Origin: Heterodontus francisci
Taxonomy: Eukaryota
Direction: 5' to 3'
Assembly (NCBI RefSeq): GCF_036365525.1
Contig: NC_090385.1
Location: 43,829,775 to 43,893,774, forward strand
DNA length: 64,000 nucleotides
Part shown: positions 23,122 to 35,053 of the stretch, in pieces
Layout of the letters: every line of letters starts with the position of its first letter
Position numbering within the stretch: the stretch's first letter is position 1
Position numbers and translations under genes: made by a program
The notes under the pieces: generated by a model
The model's database searches: none
Told to the model about the DNA's origin: nothing
Seen by the model: only the letters and a program-made list of their open reading frames with translations

Positions 23122-25189
23122 TTTTTTTTTAATTCATTCATGGGATGTCGGCGTCACTGGCCAGGCCAGCATTTATTGCCCATCACTAATTGCCCTTGAG
23201 AAGGTGGTGGTGAGCTGCCTTCTTGAACCACTGCAGTCCATTTGGGGTAGCTATATCCACAGTGCTGTTAGGAAGGGAGTTCCAGGATTTTGACCCAGCG
23301 ACAGCGAAGGAACGGCGATATAGTTCCAAGTCAGGATGGTGTGTGACTTGGAGGGGAACATGCAGGTGGTGGTGTTCCCATGTATTTGCTGCCCTTGTCC
23401 TTCTCGTTGGTAGAGGTCGCGGGTTTGGAAGGTGCTGTCTAAGGAACCTTGGTGCATTGTTGCAGTGCATCTTGTAGATGCCACTGTGCGTCGGTGGTGG
23501 AGGGAGTAAATGTTTGTAGATGGTGTGCCACTCAAGCGGGCTGCTTTGTCCTGGATGGTGTCGACTTCTTGAGTGCTGTTGGAGCTGCACCCATCCAGGC
23601 AAGTGGAGAGTATTCCATCACACTCCTGACTTGTGCCTTGTAGTTGGTGGACAGGCTTTGGGGAGTCAGGAGGTGAGTTACCCGTCTCAGGATTCCTAGC
23701 CTCTGACCTGCTCTTGTAGCCATGGTATTTATATGGCTGCTCCAGTTCAGTTTCTGGTCAATGGTAGCCCCTAGGATGTTGATAGTGGGGGATTCAGCGA
23801 TGGTAAAGCCATTGAATGTCAAGGGGAGATGGTTAGATTCTCTCTTGTTGGAGATGGTCATTGCCTGGCACTTGTGTGACGCGAATGTTACTTGCCACTT
23901 ATCAGCCCAAGCCTGGATATTGTCCAGGTCTTGCTGCATTTCAACATGGACTGCTTCAGTATCTGAGGAGTCATGAATGGTGTTGAACATTGTGCAATCA
24001 TCAGCGAACATCCCCACTTCTGACCTTATGATTGAAGGAAGGTCATTGATGAAGCAGTTGAAGATGGTTGGGCCTAGGACACTACCCTGAGGAACGCCTG
24101 CAGTGACGTCCTGGAGCTCAGATGATTGACCTCCAACAACCACAACCATCTTCCTTTGCGCTAGGTATGACTCCAGCCAGCGGAGGGTTTTCCCCCTGAT
24201 TCCCGTTGACCTCAGTTTTGGTAGGGCTCCTTGATGCCATACTCGGTCAAATGCTGCCTTGATGTCAAGGGCAATCACTCTCACCTCACCTCTTGAGTTC
24301 AGCTCTTTTGTCCATGTTTGAACCAAGGCTGTAATGAGGTCAGGAGCTGAGTGGCCCTGGCAGAACCCAAACTGAGCGTCACTGAGCAGGTTATTGCTAA
24401 GCAAGTGCCACTTGATGGCACTGTTGATGACACCTTCCATGACTTTTTTGATGATTGAGAGTAGGCTAATGGGGTGGTAATTGGCCGGGTTGGACTTGTC
24501 CTGCTTTTTGTGTACAGGACATACCTGGGCAATTTTCCACATTGCAGGGTAGATGCCAGTGTTGTAGCTGTACTGGAACAGCTTGGCTTGGGGTGCGGCA
24601 AGTTCTGGAGCACAGGTCTTCAGTACTATTGCCAGAATATTGTCAGGGCCCATAGCTTTTGCAGTATCCAGTGCCTTCAGTCGTTTCTTGATATCACGCG
24701 GAGTGTATCGAATTGGCTGAAGTCTGGCATCTGTGATGCTGGGACTTCAGGAGGGGGCCGAGATGGATCATCAGCTTGGCACTTCTGGCTGAAGATTGTT
24801 GCAAATGCTTCTGCCTTATCTTTCGCACTGATATGCTGGGCTGCCCCATCATTGAGGATGGGGATATTTGTGGAGCCACCTCCTCCTGTTAGTTGTTTAA
24901 TTGTCCACCACCATTCACGGCTGGATGTGGTAGGACTGCAGAGCCTAGATCTGATCCGTTGGTTGTGGGATCACTTAGCTCTGTCTATCGCATGCTGCTT
25001 ACGCAGTTTGGCATGCAAGTAGTCCTGGGTTGTAGCTTCACCAGGTTGACACCTCATTTTGAGGTATGCCTGGTGCTGCTCCTGGAATGCCATCGTGCAC
25101 TCTTCATTGAACCAGGGTCAGTCTCCTGGCTTGATGGTAATGGTAGAGTGGGTGATATGCCAAGCCATGAGGTTACAGATTGTGGTTGA
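23122..25189 (-). mobile_element. Family B (Zenon-like CR1-clade) LINE nested in Tx1 ORF1
   Basis: 373-aa RT ORF 23532..24653 ([27 protein letters not shown]); poly(T) on + strand at 23122. Confidence 0.93.
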
Positions 25190-27919
25190 GAGGGATCCAT
25201 CTGAGAAGGAGAGGAACGGGGAGGCAGCTGCAACCAGCAACCCAACACCTACCCTGTGCCTGGAAACCCCTCCTCAACACACAGAATCCATGGAGGAGGA
25301 GGCAGCAGTGGGACAATCGGATGAGTGGCAAGTGGTCAAAAAGAAAAACCCCAAAGAAAAAGCCCCCAAAAAGGAACAGGTCACCACCCAAACCAGTGGC
25401 AAGATGAGGCTACCGTCTGAGACGTACTATGGTAGCTGCTCCTCATCAGACGAGGAAGGGCCGGAAAGAGGGCACATGCAAAAGAAGCAGCAGAACGCAA
25501 AGGAGCTGGAAGAGAAAGCCCCCTAGCTCCGTGGCACTGGAAGCAGCGATGGGCCCAGCGGGCCCCAACCCAAAAGCACTGAACCCAGTGAGATGCCCAG
25601 CACACCCCAGCTCCAGGAGACTGAGAGCAGCGAAGCGTCCAGCGCACTCCAGCTCTGGGAAGCCAAGAGCACAAACGTCCTCGAGGAGGAACAGAGGGGA
25701 AAGATACCACCAGCAGAGGACAGTCCAAGCCTTGCTGCCTACAAGATCCCGCCGATGTCACCCCAGGGGAAAGAAACCCCCGTGAGTAACCAGAAGGATT
25801 TTCTGAGCCTAACGCATGTGCAACAGCTTGTGCACTTTATGGGTATGCAGAAAAATATCCAAGGATTGGGACTAGTAAGAATACCTGGTGTGGTAAGCAA
25901 CATCCATTTTTAAATGGGTATAAAGATTGCTTCTATTAACGTGCATAGCATTAAATCCACTACGCGATGTGTTTCAACTTTGGGCTACCTCGCCAAGGTC
26001 AAAGCAGACCGACTGATTCTGCAGGAGTGTGGGATACCGCACTTCAGCACTTATAGACAATGGTCACAATGGTGGTCCCACGGGCGATCGATCTGGTCAG
26101 GTGGAAATGATTCCCGTTCCTCTGGCCTGGGTATTCTGCTGTGGGGAAGCAACTTCACCATCTCCAAAGTTAAGGAGGTGGTGGGCGGCCACCTCCTCAT
26201 AGCAGACGTAATGTACAACAATGCTCCGCTCTGTTTGATCAACTTGTACCCCCTGGTACAATACAGAAAGTGGCTTACCATCCTCCAGCAGCTCCCACTG
26301 CTGCTGGTGACATCCAGGCCAGTCATTCTAGGCGGTGACTTCAGCTGCATCATTGATGCAGCTGGATGATCCAGCAGTGACGACAGTAAACAGGACGCTA
26401 TGTCCAAATTCCTAACGGAAACAGTAAAAGATGCCAAGCTGCATGACGTCTTCAGCAACCCTACAGACGAAGCACAGCATAGATACACCTGTTCAAGAGT
26501 GGACGGGTCTGCCCGTTCCAGGATTGACTTCTTCTTTGTGTCCTGTGCTTTCACGGTCAGATCCACTGACATCAAGCCAGTGTTCTTCTCTGACCACTGC
26601 CTCCTACTGGTTGACTGTCACTTACAGGACGACCAGCGGGTTGGCAGGAGGACATGGAAGCTGAAGGTAACACTGCTGACCCCAGAGAACATTGAGGAAC
26701 TCAAAAAGGATTACAAAGATTGGAGAACCAGGAAACCTCTCTTTGAGACTCCGGTGCACTGGTGGGAAGTGATCAAGGTGCACATCACCAGGTTCTTTAT
26801 TCTCAAAGCTGTTCAGAGAGCAAGAGAGAGACAGAGGGAAATGTCCCAACTCCAGAAAAGAATGCAGAATTTGCTCCTGCTGCAGTCGATGGGGATGAAG
26901 GTCAAGGAGGACCTCCAAAATCATCTTCCAGTCCAGAGTCTGCTCTGTTGAGCAGGAAGAGACGTGCTCATGCTTCTTCTTCCAAAAGGTGGACAGAGAG
27001 AGCTCTGTGATCAGCAACCTGAAGGAAGAGGACAGCTCGGTGTCGTCATCGCAGTCTGACATACCAAGGATCAGCAAATCCTTTTAATGCCAGGCTGTAT
27101 GACATGAAGCCCACAGACAGCACAGCATCCCAGTCCTTCCTGTCAACTATCACAGAGGTCTTAGGTGACAGCATGCAGGAAAGTCTGGACAAACCACTAA
27201 CTCTGGATGAGCTGACAAAGGCTGTCAGGTCCTTCAAGACGAGTAAAACTCCCGGAAGGGATGGCTTACCAATTGAGTTGTATTCGACTCTGTGGGGCTG
27301 GATTGGCCCTGACCTGCTAGAAGTATACGAGAGTGTGCTTCTGGCCAGCAGCATGTCAAAATCCGTGAAGAAAGGCACCATCACCCTCATCTACAAGCGG
27401 AAGGGGGAGAGGGCGGAAATCAGAAATTGACTGCTCACTGCTTAATGTAAACTACACGATTCTGTCCAAAGTCATCGCCAGTTGGGTCAAGTCTGCTCTG
27501 GAGTTGGTGATTCACCCTGATCCCGACCTGTACTGTACCCGGAAGGAAGATCTCTGATAGTCTTGCGCTACTCAGGGATACGATTGCCTATGTACAGGAC
27601 TGGGGGTGGACACCTGCCTCATCAGTTTGGACCAGGAGAAGGCTTTTGACATGATATCACACACATGCATGATGGATGTGCTCTCCAAAATGGGGTTTGG
27701 GGAGGGAATCTGCAATTGAATCAAACTGCTCGACACAAACGTCAATAGCACAGTCTCAAACAATGGGTGGGAATCAGAACGTTTCTGATCAAATCTGGAT
27801 TCAGACAGGGCTGTCCTCTCTCCCCTGTCTTGTTTGTTTTCTGTATTGAACCTTTTGCTGAGTCCATTCAGAAGGATGTGGGTATAAGAGGGATGACATT
27901 CCCAGGCAGTAGAGCACTC

Positions 27920-28087
27920 CTTTGTTATCTCTTGCCCCACCCCCACCTCACCTACTTATAACCTGTGACTTTTCTAATATTTGTCAGTTCCGAAGAAGGG
28001 TCACTGACCCGAAATGTTAACTCTGCTTCTCTTTTCACAGATGCTGCCCGACCTGCTGAGTATTTCCAGCATTTCTTGTTTTTATTT
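27920..28087 (+). mobile_element. Penelope-like element 3' terminal repeat (pLTR) fragment
   Basis: 5-bp TSD CACTC (27915-19 and 28088-92); interrupts the Tx1 RT just before YMDD; near-identical to 28509-28647. Confidence 0.75.
27986..28022 (+). ncRNA. Minimal type I hammerhead ribozyme motif, variant core
   Basis: AGTT-CCGAAGA-A-GGGTC act GACCC-GAAATGTT-AACT; the core differs from consensus at U4 and in the stem III palindrome. Confidence 0.55.
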
Positions 28088-28506
28088 CACTCAGGTCAAA
28101 GCTTCTCTGTACATGGACGACGTCGCCGTCTTCTACTCAGATCCACTATCCGTTCTCAGGCTGATGAGCATCTGTGACCAGTTTGAACTGGCCTTGGGAG
28201 CCAAAGTAAATCGCAGCAAGAGTGAGGCCATGTTCTTTGGGAACTGGGCCGACCAATGCTTTGTTCCCTTCACCATCAGGTCAGACTACCTGAAGGTGCT
28301 GGGATATGGATCAGCGGGGCAGGGCCGTGCGCCAAAACCTGGAAGGAGCGAGTAGCCATGGTACACCATAAGCTGAGCATGTGGGAGCAGCGTTCTCTCT
28401 CCATTGTGGGTAAGAACCTGATCATTATGTGCGAGGCGCTCATGTTGTTGCTGTATGTGGTGCAGGTCTGGCCCATAACCCACTCCTGCGCCGTGGCGGT
28501 CAACCG

Positions 28507-28547
28507 AGAGTTCTGAAGAAGGGTCACTGACCTGAAACGTTAACTCT
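28507..28547 (+). ncRNA. Minimal type I hammerhead ribozyme motif, intact core
   Basis: Stem I AGAGTT/AACTCT, CTGAAGA plus an extra A, stem II GGGTC/GACCT, GAAA-CG-TT with palindrome AACGTT; predicted cut after 28541. Confidence 0.72.
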
Positions 28548-28647
28548 GCTTCTCTCTCCACAGATGCTGCCAGACCTGCTGAGTATTTCCAGCATTTCTT
28601 GTTTTTATTTCAGATTTCCAGCATCCACAGTATTTTGCTTTTATTTT
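28509..28647 (+). mobile_element. Second Penelope-like pLTR fragment
   Basis: Same sequence as 27986-28087 plus CAGATTTCCAGCATCCACAGTATTTTGC; no TSD seen. Confidence 0.75.
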
Positions 28648-29510
28648 AGTGGTCTGCACAGAATGTCCTCAAGGCCCTACGGGAAAAAGAGATGGTGGAT
28701 CCTCTCGGATGGTTCCCCGAGCAGACGGCCAAAGTCATTTGGCAGAATACCTCATCGCCAGAACTTTTAAATAAGCACCAAGACGTAGCTTGGCTGGTAG
28801 TGAGAAGGGCCCTCTCTATCAGATCCTTCCTGCATGCCCGGAATCTCACTGCCTCTGCACGCTACCCTCGAGGTGGCTGCAGTGGGGAAGAGACTGTTGC
28901 CCACCTCTTTCTGGAATGTGCTTTTGTAAAGCAAATGTTGAAAGCGATGCAGTGATTTCTGTCGAGATTCATCCGGAGCAGCTCGCTAACACAGGAGTCT
29001 GTGCTCTACGGTCTGTACCCAGGGACTTATACGGAGATAAACATCAACTGCTGCTGAAGGACCATCAACTCGGTGAAAGATGCTCTATGGTCTTCCCGAA
29101 ACTTGCTTGTCTTCCAGTGCAAAGAGTTGTCCACGACCGAGTGTTGCAGACTGGCACATTCCAAGGTCCAGGACTACATGCTGAGGGAGGCACTAAAGAT
29201 TGGAGCAGCCGCCACAAAGACTCAATGGGGAAAGGCTACTGTGTAAGGTCCTCCCGCCATAGTGAACTGAGGGGCTGGAAACTGTGTAAAACCCCTCCGG
29301 CTGTATGCACCAAAATATGGTTTTGTTGTGTAATGCAAATGTACATTGCATGTAAAATGGAATGGAAGGGTTGTGAGGCAACTTACGTTCTGTATTGAAG
29401 AAAACTGATCTCTTTTGCACTTTCAGGAATGTCAACTTGGAACAGTTTTGAACTATTTTGTAATATATTTTTTACAGATTTTTAAGAATAAAGCATATTT
29501 TTGGAAAAAA

Positions 29511-29600
29511 TAATCCTCGGAGTGCTTGCTGGGGCGTTGCACAGAGACCTTTGCTTTGTAGTTAACCCTCAGGCCTTAACTGGGAGTGCTAATGGACAGT
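29511..29600 (+). repeat. ~64-bp tandem repeat, right part
   Basis: CTCGGAGTGCTTGCTGGGGCG at 29516 and CTGGGAGTGCTAATGG at 29580. Confidence 0.65.
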
Positions 29601-30239
29601 TTCAAAGGAGCTGGTCTCTTCACCTAACCATGCTGAAAATGAATGCCTGAAGTGGTGAGTTATTCCATCCCCTGGACTGACACCTTTCACTTTGATGAAC
29701 AGAAAAATTTACACTAAAAAGCAATTAAAAAACCCACAAATAATCGTTGACAGGTGAATCTATTTAGTCCTACTGCTCATTCTCCAAACATTTCTATCTG
29801 GAATATCTAAGACTTTTTTGAATCAGATAATCCTTTGCAAAAGCACAATTCGGCTTACCATTTGTGATAAGTTTTGAGGGAACATTGCCTAATTTTCTCA
29901 AAAGGAACATCTAATTGAGCAGGGAATCAAACACCTCTGGTGCAAGCTCAAGAGGATCTAATTAAATGTCGCACTCACTAGCATGAGATAATATAGTTCT
30001 GGCCCTGTCAGTATTTGAGTTTTTGAACACTGCTTAGATGGCTGCTGTTCTTTTTGTGCCATTTGTGTATAAAGTGCAAGTAATTAAAATATGTGGGATT
30101 AACTCAATCTCTACTTATTTTATTTGTTTAACCTTTATTAACAACAACAATTTACATTTAAATAACACCTTTAATAAAACATCCCAAGGTGCATTACAGG
30201 AGAATTATAAAACAAAATATGACACTGAGCCACATAAGG

Positions 30240-31042
30240 AAGCTAAATTTTACAGACCCCCCGATGTCAGGGGTCATGGCTACGGGGGGAGGGGGGGGGC
30301 CAGAAAATTCCTCGGGAGAGGCCCGCCATAGACCTCAGCGCCGGGAAGGCCTGGCCCCATATTGCCGGTGGCGGCGAGGCCTCATGGCAGTCCCCTGTCA
30401 CTCATCGATGGGAGCCCAATTTCAATATGTAAATTAATTATAATTATCGCTGCACTCCCGCCATCTGACCTGGAGAGATATTGGTGCCGGTGGCCGGCAC
30501 TCCCATGCTTTCTGATCCCCATCCGGGGATCCGAGGTGGAACACTGGAGGGGTGAGCAGGTAAGTTTTCCAGTGCGGAGTTGGGGGGCGTGGGGTCAAAC
30601 CCATCTCATTGGTGTGGGGGATGGTGGGAAGGGTTACAGTGCACAGTTTATGAACTTTGGGAGGGTGAAGGTCAGGTGCACAAGGTTACATTTTGTGGGG
30701 GAGAGGGCAAGGAATTAATTCTATGGCTATTGGGGTGGGGTGAGAGGGTCAAGATCAATTTATTTAATTTTATTAAATCAATCTTAATACTTAAATTGAA
30801 ATGTAGGGCTCGAAGCACTTTAAAAATGGCGTCAGCACCTGTGCAAAGGCGGCTGACGCGATTGCTGGGGGCGGACAGCCCGCTCCCTCCACGTCATTGG
30901 GGTGGGGAGTCCGCCCCGGCTATTTAAATGAGCCCACCGAACTTAATATCGCAGCAGCTCTGCAACGTGTGGACCACGTGGGCAGACTCACCATTGTTTG
31001 CGTCCACCACCGACTGTGGAGGCGGAAGTATAAATGTCAGCC
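30240..31042. mobile_element. Harbinger-type MITE
   Basis: Degenerate TIRs AGCTAAATTTT...AAATGTCAGCC; homologous to 1391-2098. Confidence 0.65.
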
Positions 31043-31250
31043 ACGAGGTCAGATGGCCACAAGCTTGGTCAAAGCTTGTTTGCACGGAGTGAGGCTGTGG
31101 GTTGAGTGTGGGTATTTTCCTTGGCTGGGAGCGGTGGAACGTGCTCTTTGGTCTCTTTTTTTCTCAGTCTCAAAGGTACAGGGGATAAAAGCTGATTGTA
31201 AATAGCTGGTAAGTTATTACACTAGCAAAATTTCATTGTAAAGTTAAGTA

Positions 31251-32200
31251 ATGGCAGGGCAGTTTGGCCAAGTGGAATGTGTCTCCTGTGCAATGTGGGA
31301 AGTTGTGGACGTGCCATGTGACCTTGGCGAACACATCTGCAGGAAGTGTCTCCGGTTGCAGAAGCTTGAGCTTCGGGATTTGGAGCTCGAACGGCGGCTG
31401 GAGTCACTGTGGCGCATCCACAAGGTAGAGGACTACATGGATGGCACATTTCAGGAGGTGGTCAACCCGGTGCCGAGGCAAGCACAGACGGGGGGGAGGG
31501 GGGACTGGGTGGCTGCTGGATGGACAAAAAGGTCAGAGCAGGTAGTTCAGGAGTTCCCAGAGGACATCCCACTTTCTAACTGGTATTCAGTTGTGAGTAC
31601 CGATGGGAAAGAGGGTTCCTCTGAAGAGTGCACTGAGAGTCATAACCGAAACATCATGGGTGACTCAGCTATGCTGGGATGGAGAAAAAGGGACAAGAGG
31701 GCAATAGTGGTAGGGAATTCTATGGTTAGTGGAACAGATATGTGTTTCTGTGGTCACAGATGTGATTCCAGGGTGGCATGTTGCCTCCTTGATGCAAGGG
31801 TCATGGATATCACCGAACAGCTACAGAGTATTCTGGAGGGTGAGGGTGCACAGCCGGAGATTGTGGTCCACATTGGTACCAATGACATAGGTAGAAAGAG
31901 GGATGAGGTCCTGCAAAAAGAATTTAGGGAACTAAGTAGCAAATTAAAGAGTAGGACCTCAAAGGTTGTAATCTCTGGGTTTCTCCCAGTGCCAGGGGCT
32001 AGTGAGTGTAGGAATAGGAGGTTAGAGCAGATGAAGGCATGGCTGAAGACATGGTGTAGGAGGGAGGGCTTTAGTTTCCTGGATCACTGGGCTTGTTGAA
32101 GGTGAGATCTGTTCAAGTTGGACAGGTTCCACCTGAACTGGAGCAGGACCAACATCCTTGCTGGGATGTTTGCTAGTGCTGTTGTAGGGGGTGGGGTTGG
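31251..32200 (+). pseudogene. CR1 ORF1 (zinc finger plus SGNH esterase domain)
   Basis: CVSC...CRKC zinc finger, leucine-rich coiled coil, IVVGNSMV, VVHIGTNDIG, DRFHLN. Confidence 0.9.
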
Positions 32201-32349
32201 GGGGGTGGTGGTTAAACTAATTTGGCAGGGGGTTGGAATACAGAGTGGAGGTACAGTAGAGGGTGAGGTACAATCAAATATAGAAGAGAAACTAAGTCAG
32301 TCTGGAGGGCAGAGTAAATATAGACCTGTTAAGGCTCAAGCGAATAATG

Positions 32350-35053
32350 CAAGGCTGGATTGTATCTATTTTAACGCAAGGAGTCTTACTCGTAAGGCAG
32401 ATGAATTGAGGGCATTGATTAACACATGGAAACATGATATTATTGCTATTACTGAGACATGGTTGAGGGAAGGGCAGGACTGGCAGCTCAATGTCCCAGG
32501 GTATAGAATTGATTAAGGAGTCAATTACTGCAGTAATGAGGGATGATATCTTAGAAGGTTCCTCTAATGAGGTCATATGGGTAGAACTTAAAAACAAAAA
32601 GGGGGCAATCACTTGGCTGGGAGTGTACTGCAGGCCTCCAGGGAGAGATAGAGGAGCAGATATGTTGGCAAATCTCAGAGAGGTGCAAAAATAGTAGGGT
32701 AATAATAGTAGGGGATTTCAACTTACCCCATATTAGAGGAGATATTATTAGTGCAAAAGGCTTAAAGGGGGCAGAATTCTTAAAGTGCATTCAGGAGAGC
32801 TTTTTGAGCCAGCATGTACAGAGTCCTACAAGAGGAGGGGTGGTACGAGGCTTAATCCTAGGGAATGAAGCTGGACAAGTGGTAGAAGTGTCAGTGGGGG
32901 AGCATTTCGGGGATAGTGACCATAACTCTGTAAGATTTAAGGTAGTTGTGGAAAAGAACATAGAGGGACCGAAAATAAAAGTACTGAATTGGGAAGGCAG
33001 ATTTCAATAAGATAAAACAGGCTCTGGCCAAAGTGGACTGGAGCAGATTCTTGTTGGAAAGTCTACATCAGACCAGTGGGAGTCATTCAGAAAGGAAATA
33101 GTGAGAGTTCAGGTCCAACATGTTCCCATAAAGGTGAAGAGTAGGACCAAAAAGTCCAGGGAACCCTAGATGTTAAGGGATATAGAGGATTGGATAAGGA
33201 AAAAAAAGGAGGCTTATGGCAGATTCGGAGTGATGAAAACAGTGGAGGCCCCAGAGAAGTACAGAAAGTGCAGTGGGGTACTTAAAAAAGTAATTAGGAG
33301 AGCGAAGATGGGGCATGAAAAAACACTGGCAGACAAGATAAAGGAAAATCCCAAGGTTTTTATAAGTATATTAAGGGTAAGAGGATAACCAGGGAAAGAG
33401 TGAGGCCCATTAGGGACCAAAGTAACAATTTGTGTGTGGAGCCAGAGGACATAGGTGAGGTTTTGAATGATTCCTTTTCATCTGTGTTCACTATGGAGAA
33501 GGATGATGTAGGTGTAGAGATCAGGGAGGGGGATTGTGATATACTCAAACAAATCAGCTTGAAAAGGAGGAAGTATTTGCTGTTTTAGTGGGCTTAAAGG
33601 TGGATAAATCCCCAGGCCCAGTTGAGGTGTATCCCAGGGGCTGTGAGGTAAAGGAGGAGATAGCAGGGGCTCTGACACAAATTTTCAAATCCTCTCTGGC
33701 CACAGGAGAGGTACCAGATGACTGGAGGACAGTGAGTATGGTACCATTATTCAAGAAGGGTAGCAGGGATAAACCAGGTAATTACAGGCCAGTGAGTCTA
33801 ACGTCAGTGGTAGGGAAACTATTTGAAAAAATTCTGAGAGATAAGATTAATCTCCACTTGGAGAGGCAGGGATTAATCAAGGATAGTCAGCATGGCTTTG
33901 TCAGGGGGAGATCGTGTCTAACAAATTTGATAGAATTTTTCGAGGAAGTGACCAGATATGTAGATGAGGGTAGGGCAGTTCATGTGGTCTACATGGCCTT
34001 CAGTAAGGCTTTTGATAAGGTCCCGCATAGGAGATTGATTAAGAAGGTAAGAGCCCGTGGGATTCAAGGTAATTTGGCAAATTGGATCCAAAATTGGCTT
34101 TGTGGAAGGAGGCAGAGTGTGATAGTCCAGAGTTATTTTTGCGAATGGAGGCCTGTGACCAGTGGTGTACCTCAGGTGCTGGGACCCTTACTGTTTGTAG
34201 TGTACATTAATGATTTAGACGAGAATATAGGAGGTATGATCAGTAAGTTGGTAGATGACACGAAAATTGGTGGTGTTGTAAATAGTGAAGAGGAAAGCCT
34301 TAGATTACAGGACAATATAGATGGGCTGGTAAGATGGGCAGAGCAGTGACAGATGGAATTTAATCCTGAGAAGTGTGAGGTGATGTACTTTGGGAGAACT
34401 AACAACGCAAGGGAATATACAATAGAAGGTAGCACCTTAGGGAGTACAGAGGGTCAGAGGGACCTTGGTGTACTTGTCCATAGATCACTGAAGGCAGCAG
34501 CACAGGTAGATAAGATGGTTAGGAAGGCATGCAGGACACCAGCCTTTATTAGCCGAGGCATAGAATATAAGAGCAGGGAGGTTATGTTAGAGTTGTATAA
34601 AATGCTGGTTAAGCCACATCTGGAGTACTGTGTACAATTCTGGTCACCACATTATTGGAAGGATGTGATTGCACTGGAGAGGGTGCAGAGGAGATTCACC
34701 AGGATGTTGCCTGGGCTGGAGCATTTCAGCTATGAGGAGTGATTGGATAGGCTGGGTTGTTTTCCATGGAGCGGAGAAGGCTGAGGGGGTACCTGATCGA
34801 GGTGTACAAGATTATGAGGGGCATTGATAGGATAGATAGGAAGAAACTTTTTCCCTTAAAGGGGGGGTCAATAACCTGGGGGCATAGATTTAAGGTAAGG
34901 AGCAGGAGGTTTAGAGGGGAGTTGAGGAAAAAATCTTTCAATCAGAGGGTGGTTGGAATCTGGAACGCACTGCCTGAAGGGGTGGTAGAGGCAGGAACCC
35001 TCACAACATTTAAGAAGTATTTAGATGAGCACTTGAAACGCCATAGCATATAA
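32350..35053 (+). pseudogene. CR1 ORF2 (APE endonuclease plus RT), frameshifted
   Basis: YFNARS, ITETWL, DSDHNS, SCLTNLIEFFE, LVDDTK spread over several ORFs. Confidence 0.92.

Follow-up and report, generated by a model that had tools for sequence, protein, structure and literature searches.

Do two hammerhead-bearing ends of a Penelope-like element, which lie on the same strand and bracket the YMDD-bearing segment of a LINE reverse transcriptase (RT), form a unit with a life of its own, or are they the remains of separate insertions? The question is raised by a locus of Heterodontus francisci, found in a stretch of 64,000 nt (assembly GCF_036365525.1, contig NC_090385.1, positions 43,829,775 to 43,893,774 of the forward strand), the whole of which we call the window. 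A first-pass annotation, made from the letters of the sequence, had proposed that a + strand transcript could form a double hammerhead and release a 523-nt RNA containing LINE sequence, either as a retrozyme-like arrangement or as a unit mobilisable in trans by the Penelope enzyme. Based on a comparison of this locus with the rest of the genome, we consider it highly probable (roughly 0.85) that two separate Penelope stubs landed successively in a dead LINE copy, and that their 523-nt spacing is due to chance.

The features of the locus are collected in Table 1. The host ORF2 matches both RVT_1 and zf-RVT (a C-terminal zinc motif), which identifies it as an L1-group ORF2; its YMDD motif lies at 28110-28121, the RVT_1 match has an E value of 4.5e-6 (below the Pfam cut-off) and the 3' UTR of the LINE extends to an A-tract near 29510. 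For a near-intact relative of this LINE (L096), the closest match among solved structures is human LINE-1 ORF2p (E 2e-64). The host is a putative Tx1 LINE, a label suggested by its CCHC-like ORF1 pieces. Many Tx1 families have a fixed insertion target; among the copies compared here, the 3' flanks contain no common sequence. The idea of a Tx1 LINE aimed at Penelope tails was rejected, since the stubs lie inside the LINE and the 3' flanks of the LINE vary. This LINE family is often met in head-to-tail partial tandems, without a fixed target (L008, L011, L096, L107, L215, L218, L219), and it has young copies, with a 725-codon open stretch at L096:7131-9305 (- strand) and copies that are 98.5-99.1% identical to this stretch (L101, L232). 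Additionally, the window contains another LINE (23131-25111, - strand; RT frame of 404 codons), inserted in opposite orientation in the ORF1 region of the host, and a GDSL-lipase-like frame (31248-32099, + strand; PF13472, E 3.3e-8), which is likely the esterase ORF1 of the next LINE.

Table 1. Features of the locus, with positions in the window.
Feature	Position	Strand	Remarks
Broken ORF2 of an L1-group (Tx1-like) LINE, host of both stubs	25914..29245	+	Several stops and frameshifts; RT and zf-RVT matches
Left CACTC, target duplication of insertion 1	27915..27919	+	CTC also matches the pLTR; pLTR match from 27917
Penelope pLTR stub 1	27920..28087	+	Includes about 66 nt ahead of the hammerhead; 93.1% to the intact A element L212
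Hammerhead 1, minimal type I	27986..28022	+	U4C core, AUGU for ACGU; predicted cut after 28018
Inner segment of resident LINE	28088..28508	+	Opens with the right CACTC; 86.7-90.5% to LINE relatives
Hammerhead 2, minimal type I	28507..28547	+	Canonical CUGAAGA/GAAA, ACGU palindrome, GUU triplet; predicted cut after 28541
Penelope pLTR stub 2	28509..28647	+	Subfamily B; starts at the stem I 5' arm (AGTT); longer 3' tail

The two same-strand hammerhead motifs that had been noticed in this ORF2 are borne out by the sequence read-out and by a 27-nt motif search of the window, which returned 2 matches, compared with an average of 0.00 for 100 shuffled sequences. Both are minimal type I motifs, with predicted cut sites 523 nt apart. 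Copy 1 is made up of AGTT (27986-27989), CCGAAGA (27990-27996), an extra A, stem II GGGTC/GACCC, GAAA, TG, TT and AACT, and copy 2 of AGAGTT (28507-28512), CTGAAGA (28513-28519), A, GGGTC/GACCT, GAAA, CG, TT and AACTCT. The conserved core, the extra nucleotide before stem II and the palindromic helix III are all present in copy 2, whereas copy 1 deviates at U4 and in the palindrome. The hammerhead motif described for copy 2 stands, but not its 6-bp stem I, of which the outer two pairs (AG, 28507-28508) align with the LINE flank; the continuous stem I belonging to the Penelope element itself is therefore AGUU/AACU. The proposed Infernal-type check, run through Rfam over positions 24000-33000 with E up to 10, gave no hammerhead family match. 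In folding predictions, copy 2 alone forms stems I and II, with a fold no better than that of shuffles (z -0.48), and copy 1 with its own upstream sequence is folded shut, like the intact elements of subfamily A (see below).

The repeat corresponds to the terminal repeat (pLTR) plus tail of an EN+ Penelope-like element, so the first-pass annotation was right about hammerhead-bearing Penelope ends in an L1-group host. One locus (L094) contains two pLTRs 3.2 kb apart flanking a broken RT frame, and of the 150 places scored in a protein search, many have an open frame of 924 codons, arranged in tandems of ~3,296 nt, beside the pLTR of the stubs. This frame matches RVT_1 (E 1.2e-5) and, in its C-terminal part, GIY-YIG (E 0.0018), both below the Pfam cut-offs; a PDB search with the intact 924-codon frame, and Pfam and PDB searches with broken Penelope frames, gave no match. 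A single ORF, 5' truncation, inverted 5' copies and an optional tail of 30-40 bp are all seen in the parent element, a putative Neptune. Many stubs start a few bases from the 5' arm of stem I, after a stretch resembling a branch point plus AG (L063-L092, L156-L175, and position 28509 of the window).

The comparisons with known systems made here refer to the accessible parts of the papers cited. The single ORF with RT and C-terminal GIY-YIG, the CNRRRCNTC linker that precedes GIY-YIG in the frame of L212 (of the CX2-5CxxC type, a feature of Neptune and Nematis elements; PMC8557442), the head-to-tail tandems, the 5' truncation and the inverted 5' copies are shared with the EN+ elements of Craig et al. 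2021 (PMC8557442) and Frangieh et al. 2024 (PMC11167929), whereas the window has stubs only. Two 3' ends ~35 nt apart likewise recall the two-start 'tail' of the anole element (PMC11167929), whose hammerhead overlaps the start codon and does not lie, as here, ~140 nt upstream of the open frame. In the minimal hammerheads of Penelope-like elements reported by Cervera and De la Pena 2014 (PMC4209133), stem II has 7-8 bp (5 bp here), and the accessible text neither describes the CCGAAGA (U4C) core, which is the majority here, nor names a shark family. We found no literature on this Penelope family or on U4C in Penelope hammerheads, although supplementary data to PMC4209133 and to the preprint bioRxiv 10.64898/2026.07.22.740005 may list it.

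The CCGAAGA of copy 1, noted from the beginning as a variant, is indeed present, but it is the majority core of the hammerhead family and not a private decay. Genome-wide, exact 33-nt motifs number 36,236 with CCGAAGA (by a pattern that also admitted the AUGU loop) versus 7,608 with CUGAAGA, the controls giving 0, and all 9 motifs seen at four loci with intact 924-codon frames (L199, L212, L213, L214) are CCGAAGA. The sole feature of copy 1 that looks like private CpG decay is its AUGU loop; where CUGA is accompanied by other A-type marks, it has likely come about from CCGA by CpG decay. Five linked sites define two subfamilies, A and B, among 110 distinct copies. Stub 2 has B-type marks along its whole length (identity of 96.5-97.0% with two B copies and of 94.4% with intact A), and stub 1 combines an A-type 5' part (gtcag, CCGA, GACCCG, TTT) with one B-type site downstream, GAGTAT, its identity being 93.1% to the intact A element L212 and 90.1-90.2% to two B copies. 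A/B mosaics of the stub 1 type give 1,646 exact matches genome-wide, with U4C in 12 of the 17 that are readable. Mosaic pLTRs are seen in both switch directions (B 5'/A 3' at L094, A 5'/B 3' at 27920-28087), which suggests template switching or conversion between the subfamilies; in stub 1, whose 3' part is B-like as in stub 2, local conversion or a shared template may have been at work. The 3' ends of the stubs, the shorter usual one in stub 1 and the longer one in stub 2, coincide with the two ends that are common in a sample of 30 stubs.

The two stubs differ in the way they join the LINE. Stub 1 has a 5-bp target duplication, CACTC, partly overlapping microhomology: empty sites read ...GGAGG-CACTCAGG once, and the window has CACTC on both sides of the stub. 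Stub 2, by contrast, did not insert cleanly: it replaces ~334 nt of the LINE, with AGTG at 28648-28651 common to tail and target (a 4-nt microhomology). Around the pair as a whole no target duplication was found, and the inner 421 nt are colinear with the LINE on both flanks, with one frameshift near 28301-28319 and 35 differences from the majority letter; the flanks contain no diagnostic sites, and their subfamily match to the inner segment is uninformative. In a survey of LINE matches, for which 40 of 10,185 candidates were scored, the stub at junction 1 is absent in 28 of the 29 best other matches and that at junction 2 in all 29. A crude test of insertion outcome, for which 36 of 150 insertions were evaluable, gave 23 that look like duplications and 7 with apparent gaps of more than 100 nt (stub 2 of the window included), so that a deletion is not the usual outcome; the same test took stub 1 to be blunt (+1), since its 5-bp duplication is hidden within the pLTR match. 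At stubs of L064, L085, L099, L157, L161 and L167, several hundred nt of the target are apparently lost; some of these cases may be artefacts.

Junctions specific to this locus had been foreseen as the mark of two independent dead insertions, and largely specific they are. Using pattern searches (which miss strongly diverged daughters), a single occurrence was found of junction 2 (6.0 Gb, allowing up to 2 mismatches) and of junction 3 (exact match), and junction 1 is shared, to the nucleotide, with one other locus (L002/L099, G000:C24:67054971). The latter has no second stub, and its A-type GAGTG stub lies in a differently placed LINE copy; ~660 nt of LINE are lost upstream of that stub, and a short inverted piece is found at its 5' end. 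In a tree of 31 segments, a weak one with 1 of 28 inner branches starred, L002 does not group with the window, and the two have in common one rare substitution near junction 2. Common ancestry was rejected: 3 other copies have at least as many rare sites in common with the window as L002, which has one, and the tree is weak; the junction-1 stub of L002/L099 apparently arose independently. From 7,480 empty sites, 0.19 second stubs would be expected at junction 1. An insertion hotspot was also considered there and rejected, 2 of 17 matches with a stub not being distinguishable from 0 of 18 at a control site.

How often should such pairs arise by chance? Core-bearing ends, as detected by BLAST, number 10 in 20 arbitrary stretches totalling 200 kb, 14 in the 264 kb around the locus and 29 in 570 kb, corresponding to ~50 hammerhead-bearing ends per Mb and ~300,000 in all (144,000-553,000 from the 200-kb sample). 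Assuming uniform insertion after LINE arrival, and with a pair frequency that rests on sampled stretches, a Poisson calculation predicts ~4,500 same-strand pairs within 600 nt genome-wide, and 0.7 copies of the host-LINE family with the YMDD bracketed in this way (7,480 empty sites). In the 570 kb sampled there are 2 same-strand pairs less than 1 kb apart (216 and 531 nt), the 531-nt one consisting of a young and an old stub in an arbitrary 10-kb stretch (L120), and in 2 of 30 stub-centred loci a neighbour on the same strand lies no more than 1.5 kb away.

Since the subfamily marks of the two stubs differ and the pair is found nowhere else in the genome, two separate chance insertions are their most likely origin. 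By analogy with the anole element (PMC11167929), the Penelope enzyme would nick the DNA, reverse transcription would start at either of two internal RNA sites (which would account for the two 3' ends, one per stub), and the cDNA, copied from uncut RNA through the hammerhead and halting early, would leave a stub; the stub pair would then be an inert footprint, without a replication cycle of its own. The recurrence of junction 1, the substitution shared with L002, the unusual deletion at stub 2 and the B-like 3' part of stub 1 speak against this reading.

One other possibility is that the stubs have a linked origin, either both of them or stub 2 and its deletion resulting from one repair event, or from recombination of stub 2 with a third stub 334 nt downstream. 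The 334-nt loss with its microhomology and the B-type 3' part common to both stubs would fit such an event, and so would the apparent gaps at 7 of 36 evaluable insertions in the crude test and the ability of the anole enzyme to cut and extend both strands in vitro (PMC11167929). We nevertheless judge it improbable, given that two-armed insertions in the stub sample consist of adjacent, inverted copies and not of direct ones separated by 421 nt, and that stub 1 has its own duplication and an A-type 5' part.

A second possibility is that the pair, whatever its origin, works as an accidental double hammerhead, the + transcript forming a dimer that cuts twice and frees a 523-nt RNA, which may circularise. 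The pairing of the motifs is geometrically nested, AUGU with ACGU still gives 4 pairs (one of them a wobble), and minimal hammerhead dimers have some low activity in vitro (PMC4209133), but helix III loses 1.8 kcal/mol (from -1.7 to +0.1) through the loop change of copy 1, and U4C lowers activity in vitro considerably, leaving enough for viroid infectivity (PMC3088659). When the dimer is imposed on the fold of three transcript windows, the cost is 13.0-19.7 kcal/mol, with a helix III pairing probability of 0.000; this cost is a weak argument, because the control (L080) has damaged stems and scored worse. Opening copy 1 costs 5.5-6.1 kcal/mol, versus 5.4-7.9 in intact A elements (upstream sequence included), and since intact elements have similar costs, folding does not decide on cleavage. 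As for RNA, the Penelope family is overall abundant in RNA-like contig sets; among RNA contigs from 24 runs, maybe of other species, the best run contains 0.21 of the sampled words, and in 6 distinct runs, where the locus is poorly represented and the species possibly different, no contig among those listed spans a junction, which speaks neither for nor against cleavage. The anole motif was cut only with the protein of the element and had no RNA-seq ends at the cut site (PMC11167929). Release of the 523-nt RNA seems unlikely to us, and very unlikely is the broader picture in which thousands of chance same-strand pairs would act as accidental double hammerheads, cutting host or LINE transcripts and seeding retrozymes, with the window locus as a proto-retrozyme that releases its RNA with the LINE RT active-site segment, the Penelope protein aiding the folding.

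Non-LTR retrozymes (PMC7229834; Li et al., bioRxiv 10.64898/2026.07.22.740005, a preprint that sampled one cartilaginous fish) likewise have two type I hammerheads on one strand, separated by a few hundred nt that encode no intact protein; they are dispersed head-to-tail tandems of one unit, expressed as linear and circular monomer RNA. In contrast to them, the window pair is a single copy and not a tandem, its motifs are minimal and not canonical, and it encloses GC-rich LINE sequence. It is no head-to-tail tandem of one unit, as only ~100 nt are repeated (94%) and the spacer is a single LINE sequence; dispersed copies of the pair were not found either, junctions 2 and 3 being unique and junction 1 recurring at one unrelated locus. 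The likeness of the pair to a retrozyme is thus confined to its layout. A more natural derivative of the retrozyme kind is found at L080:1500-2140, a Penelope copy with an internal deletion, whose two pLTRs are separated by 500 nt and whose ORF start is joined to the 3' end of the element, yet both of its stems I are damaged.

Hardly credible, and close to refuted, is a captured unit in which pLTR-LINE-pLTR was copied whole by the Penelope enzyme, or left daughters, the reported precedent being rotifer genes flanked by pLTRs (PMC3846280): the genome has intact enzyme-coding copies and the longer tail of stub 2 would contain RT start sites, but the pair has no outer duplication, the inner piece is continuous with the LINE on both sides, junction 2 is unique, a second stub is missing at the other junction-1 locus, which lies elsewhere in a weakly resolved tree, and the 5' marks of the stubs differ. 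In the captures of Adineta vaga (Arkhipova et al. 2013, PMC3846280), unrelated sequence likewise lies between direct pLTRs, but one target duplication frames the whole, with a known empty site, whereas here the junctions are separate and the inner sequence is resident. With such pairs expected in thousands, the retrozyme-like or trans-mobilised unit of the first-pass annotation finds no support.

As it stands, this locus, probably of two successive Penelope insertions, is an ordinary nested insertion, of little significance in itself. If the pair cleaved, it would show how unrelated DNA enclosed by two Penelope ends can give rise to retrozymes. The subfamily with intact frames bears U4C, a change that is reportedly weakening, and this fits the in vitro result that Penelope insertion needs no cleavage, the anole hammerhead being dispensable for insertion (PMC11167929). 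Subfamilies A and B offer a natural pair for testing the role of the hammerhead motif.
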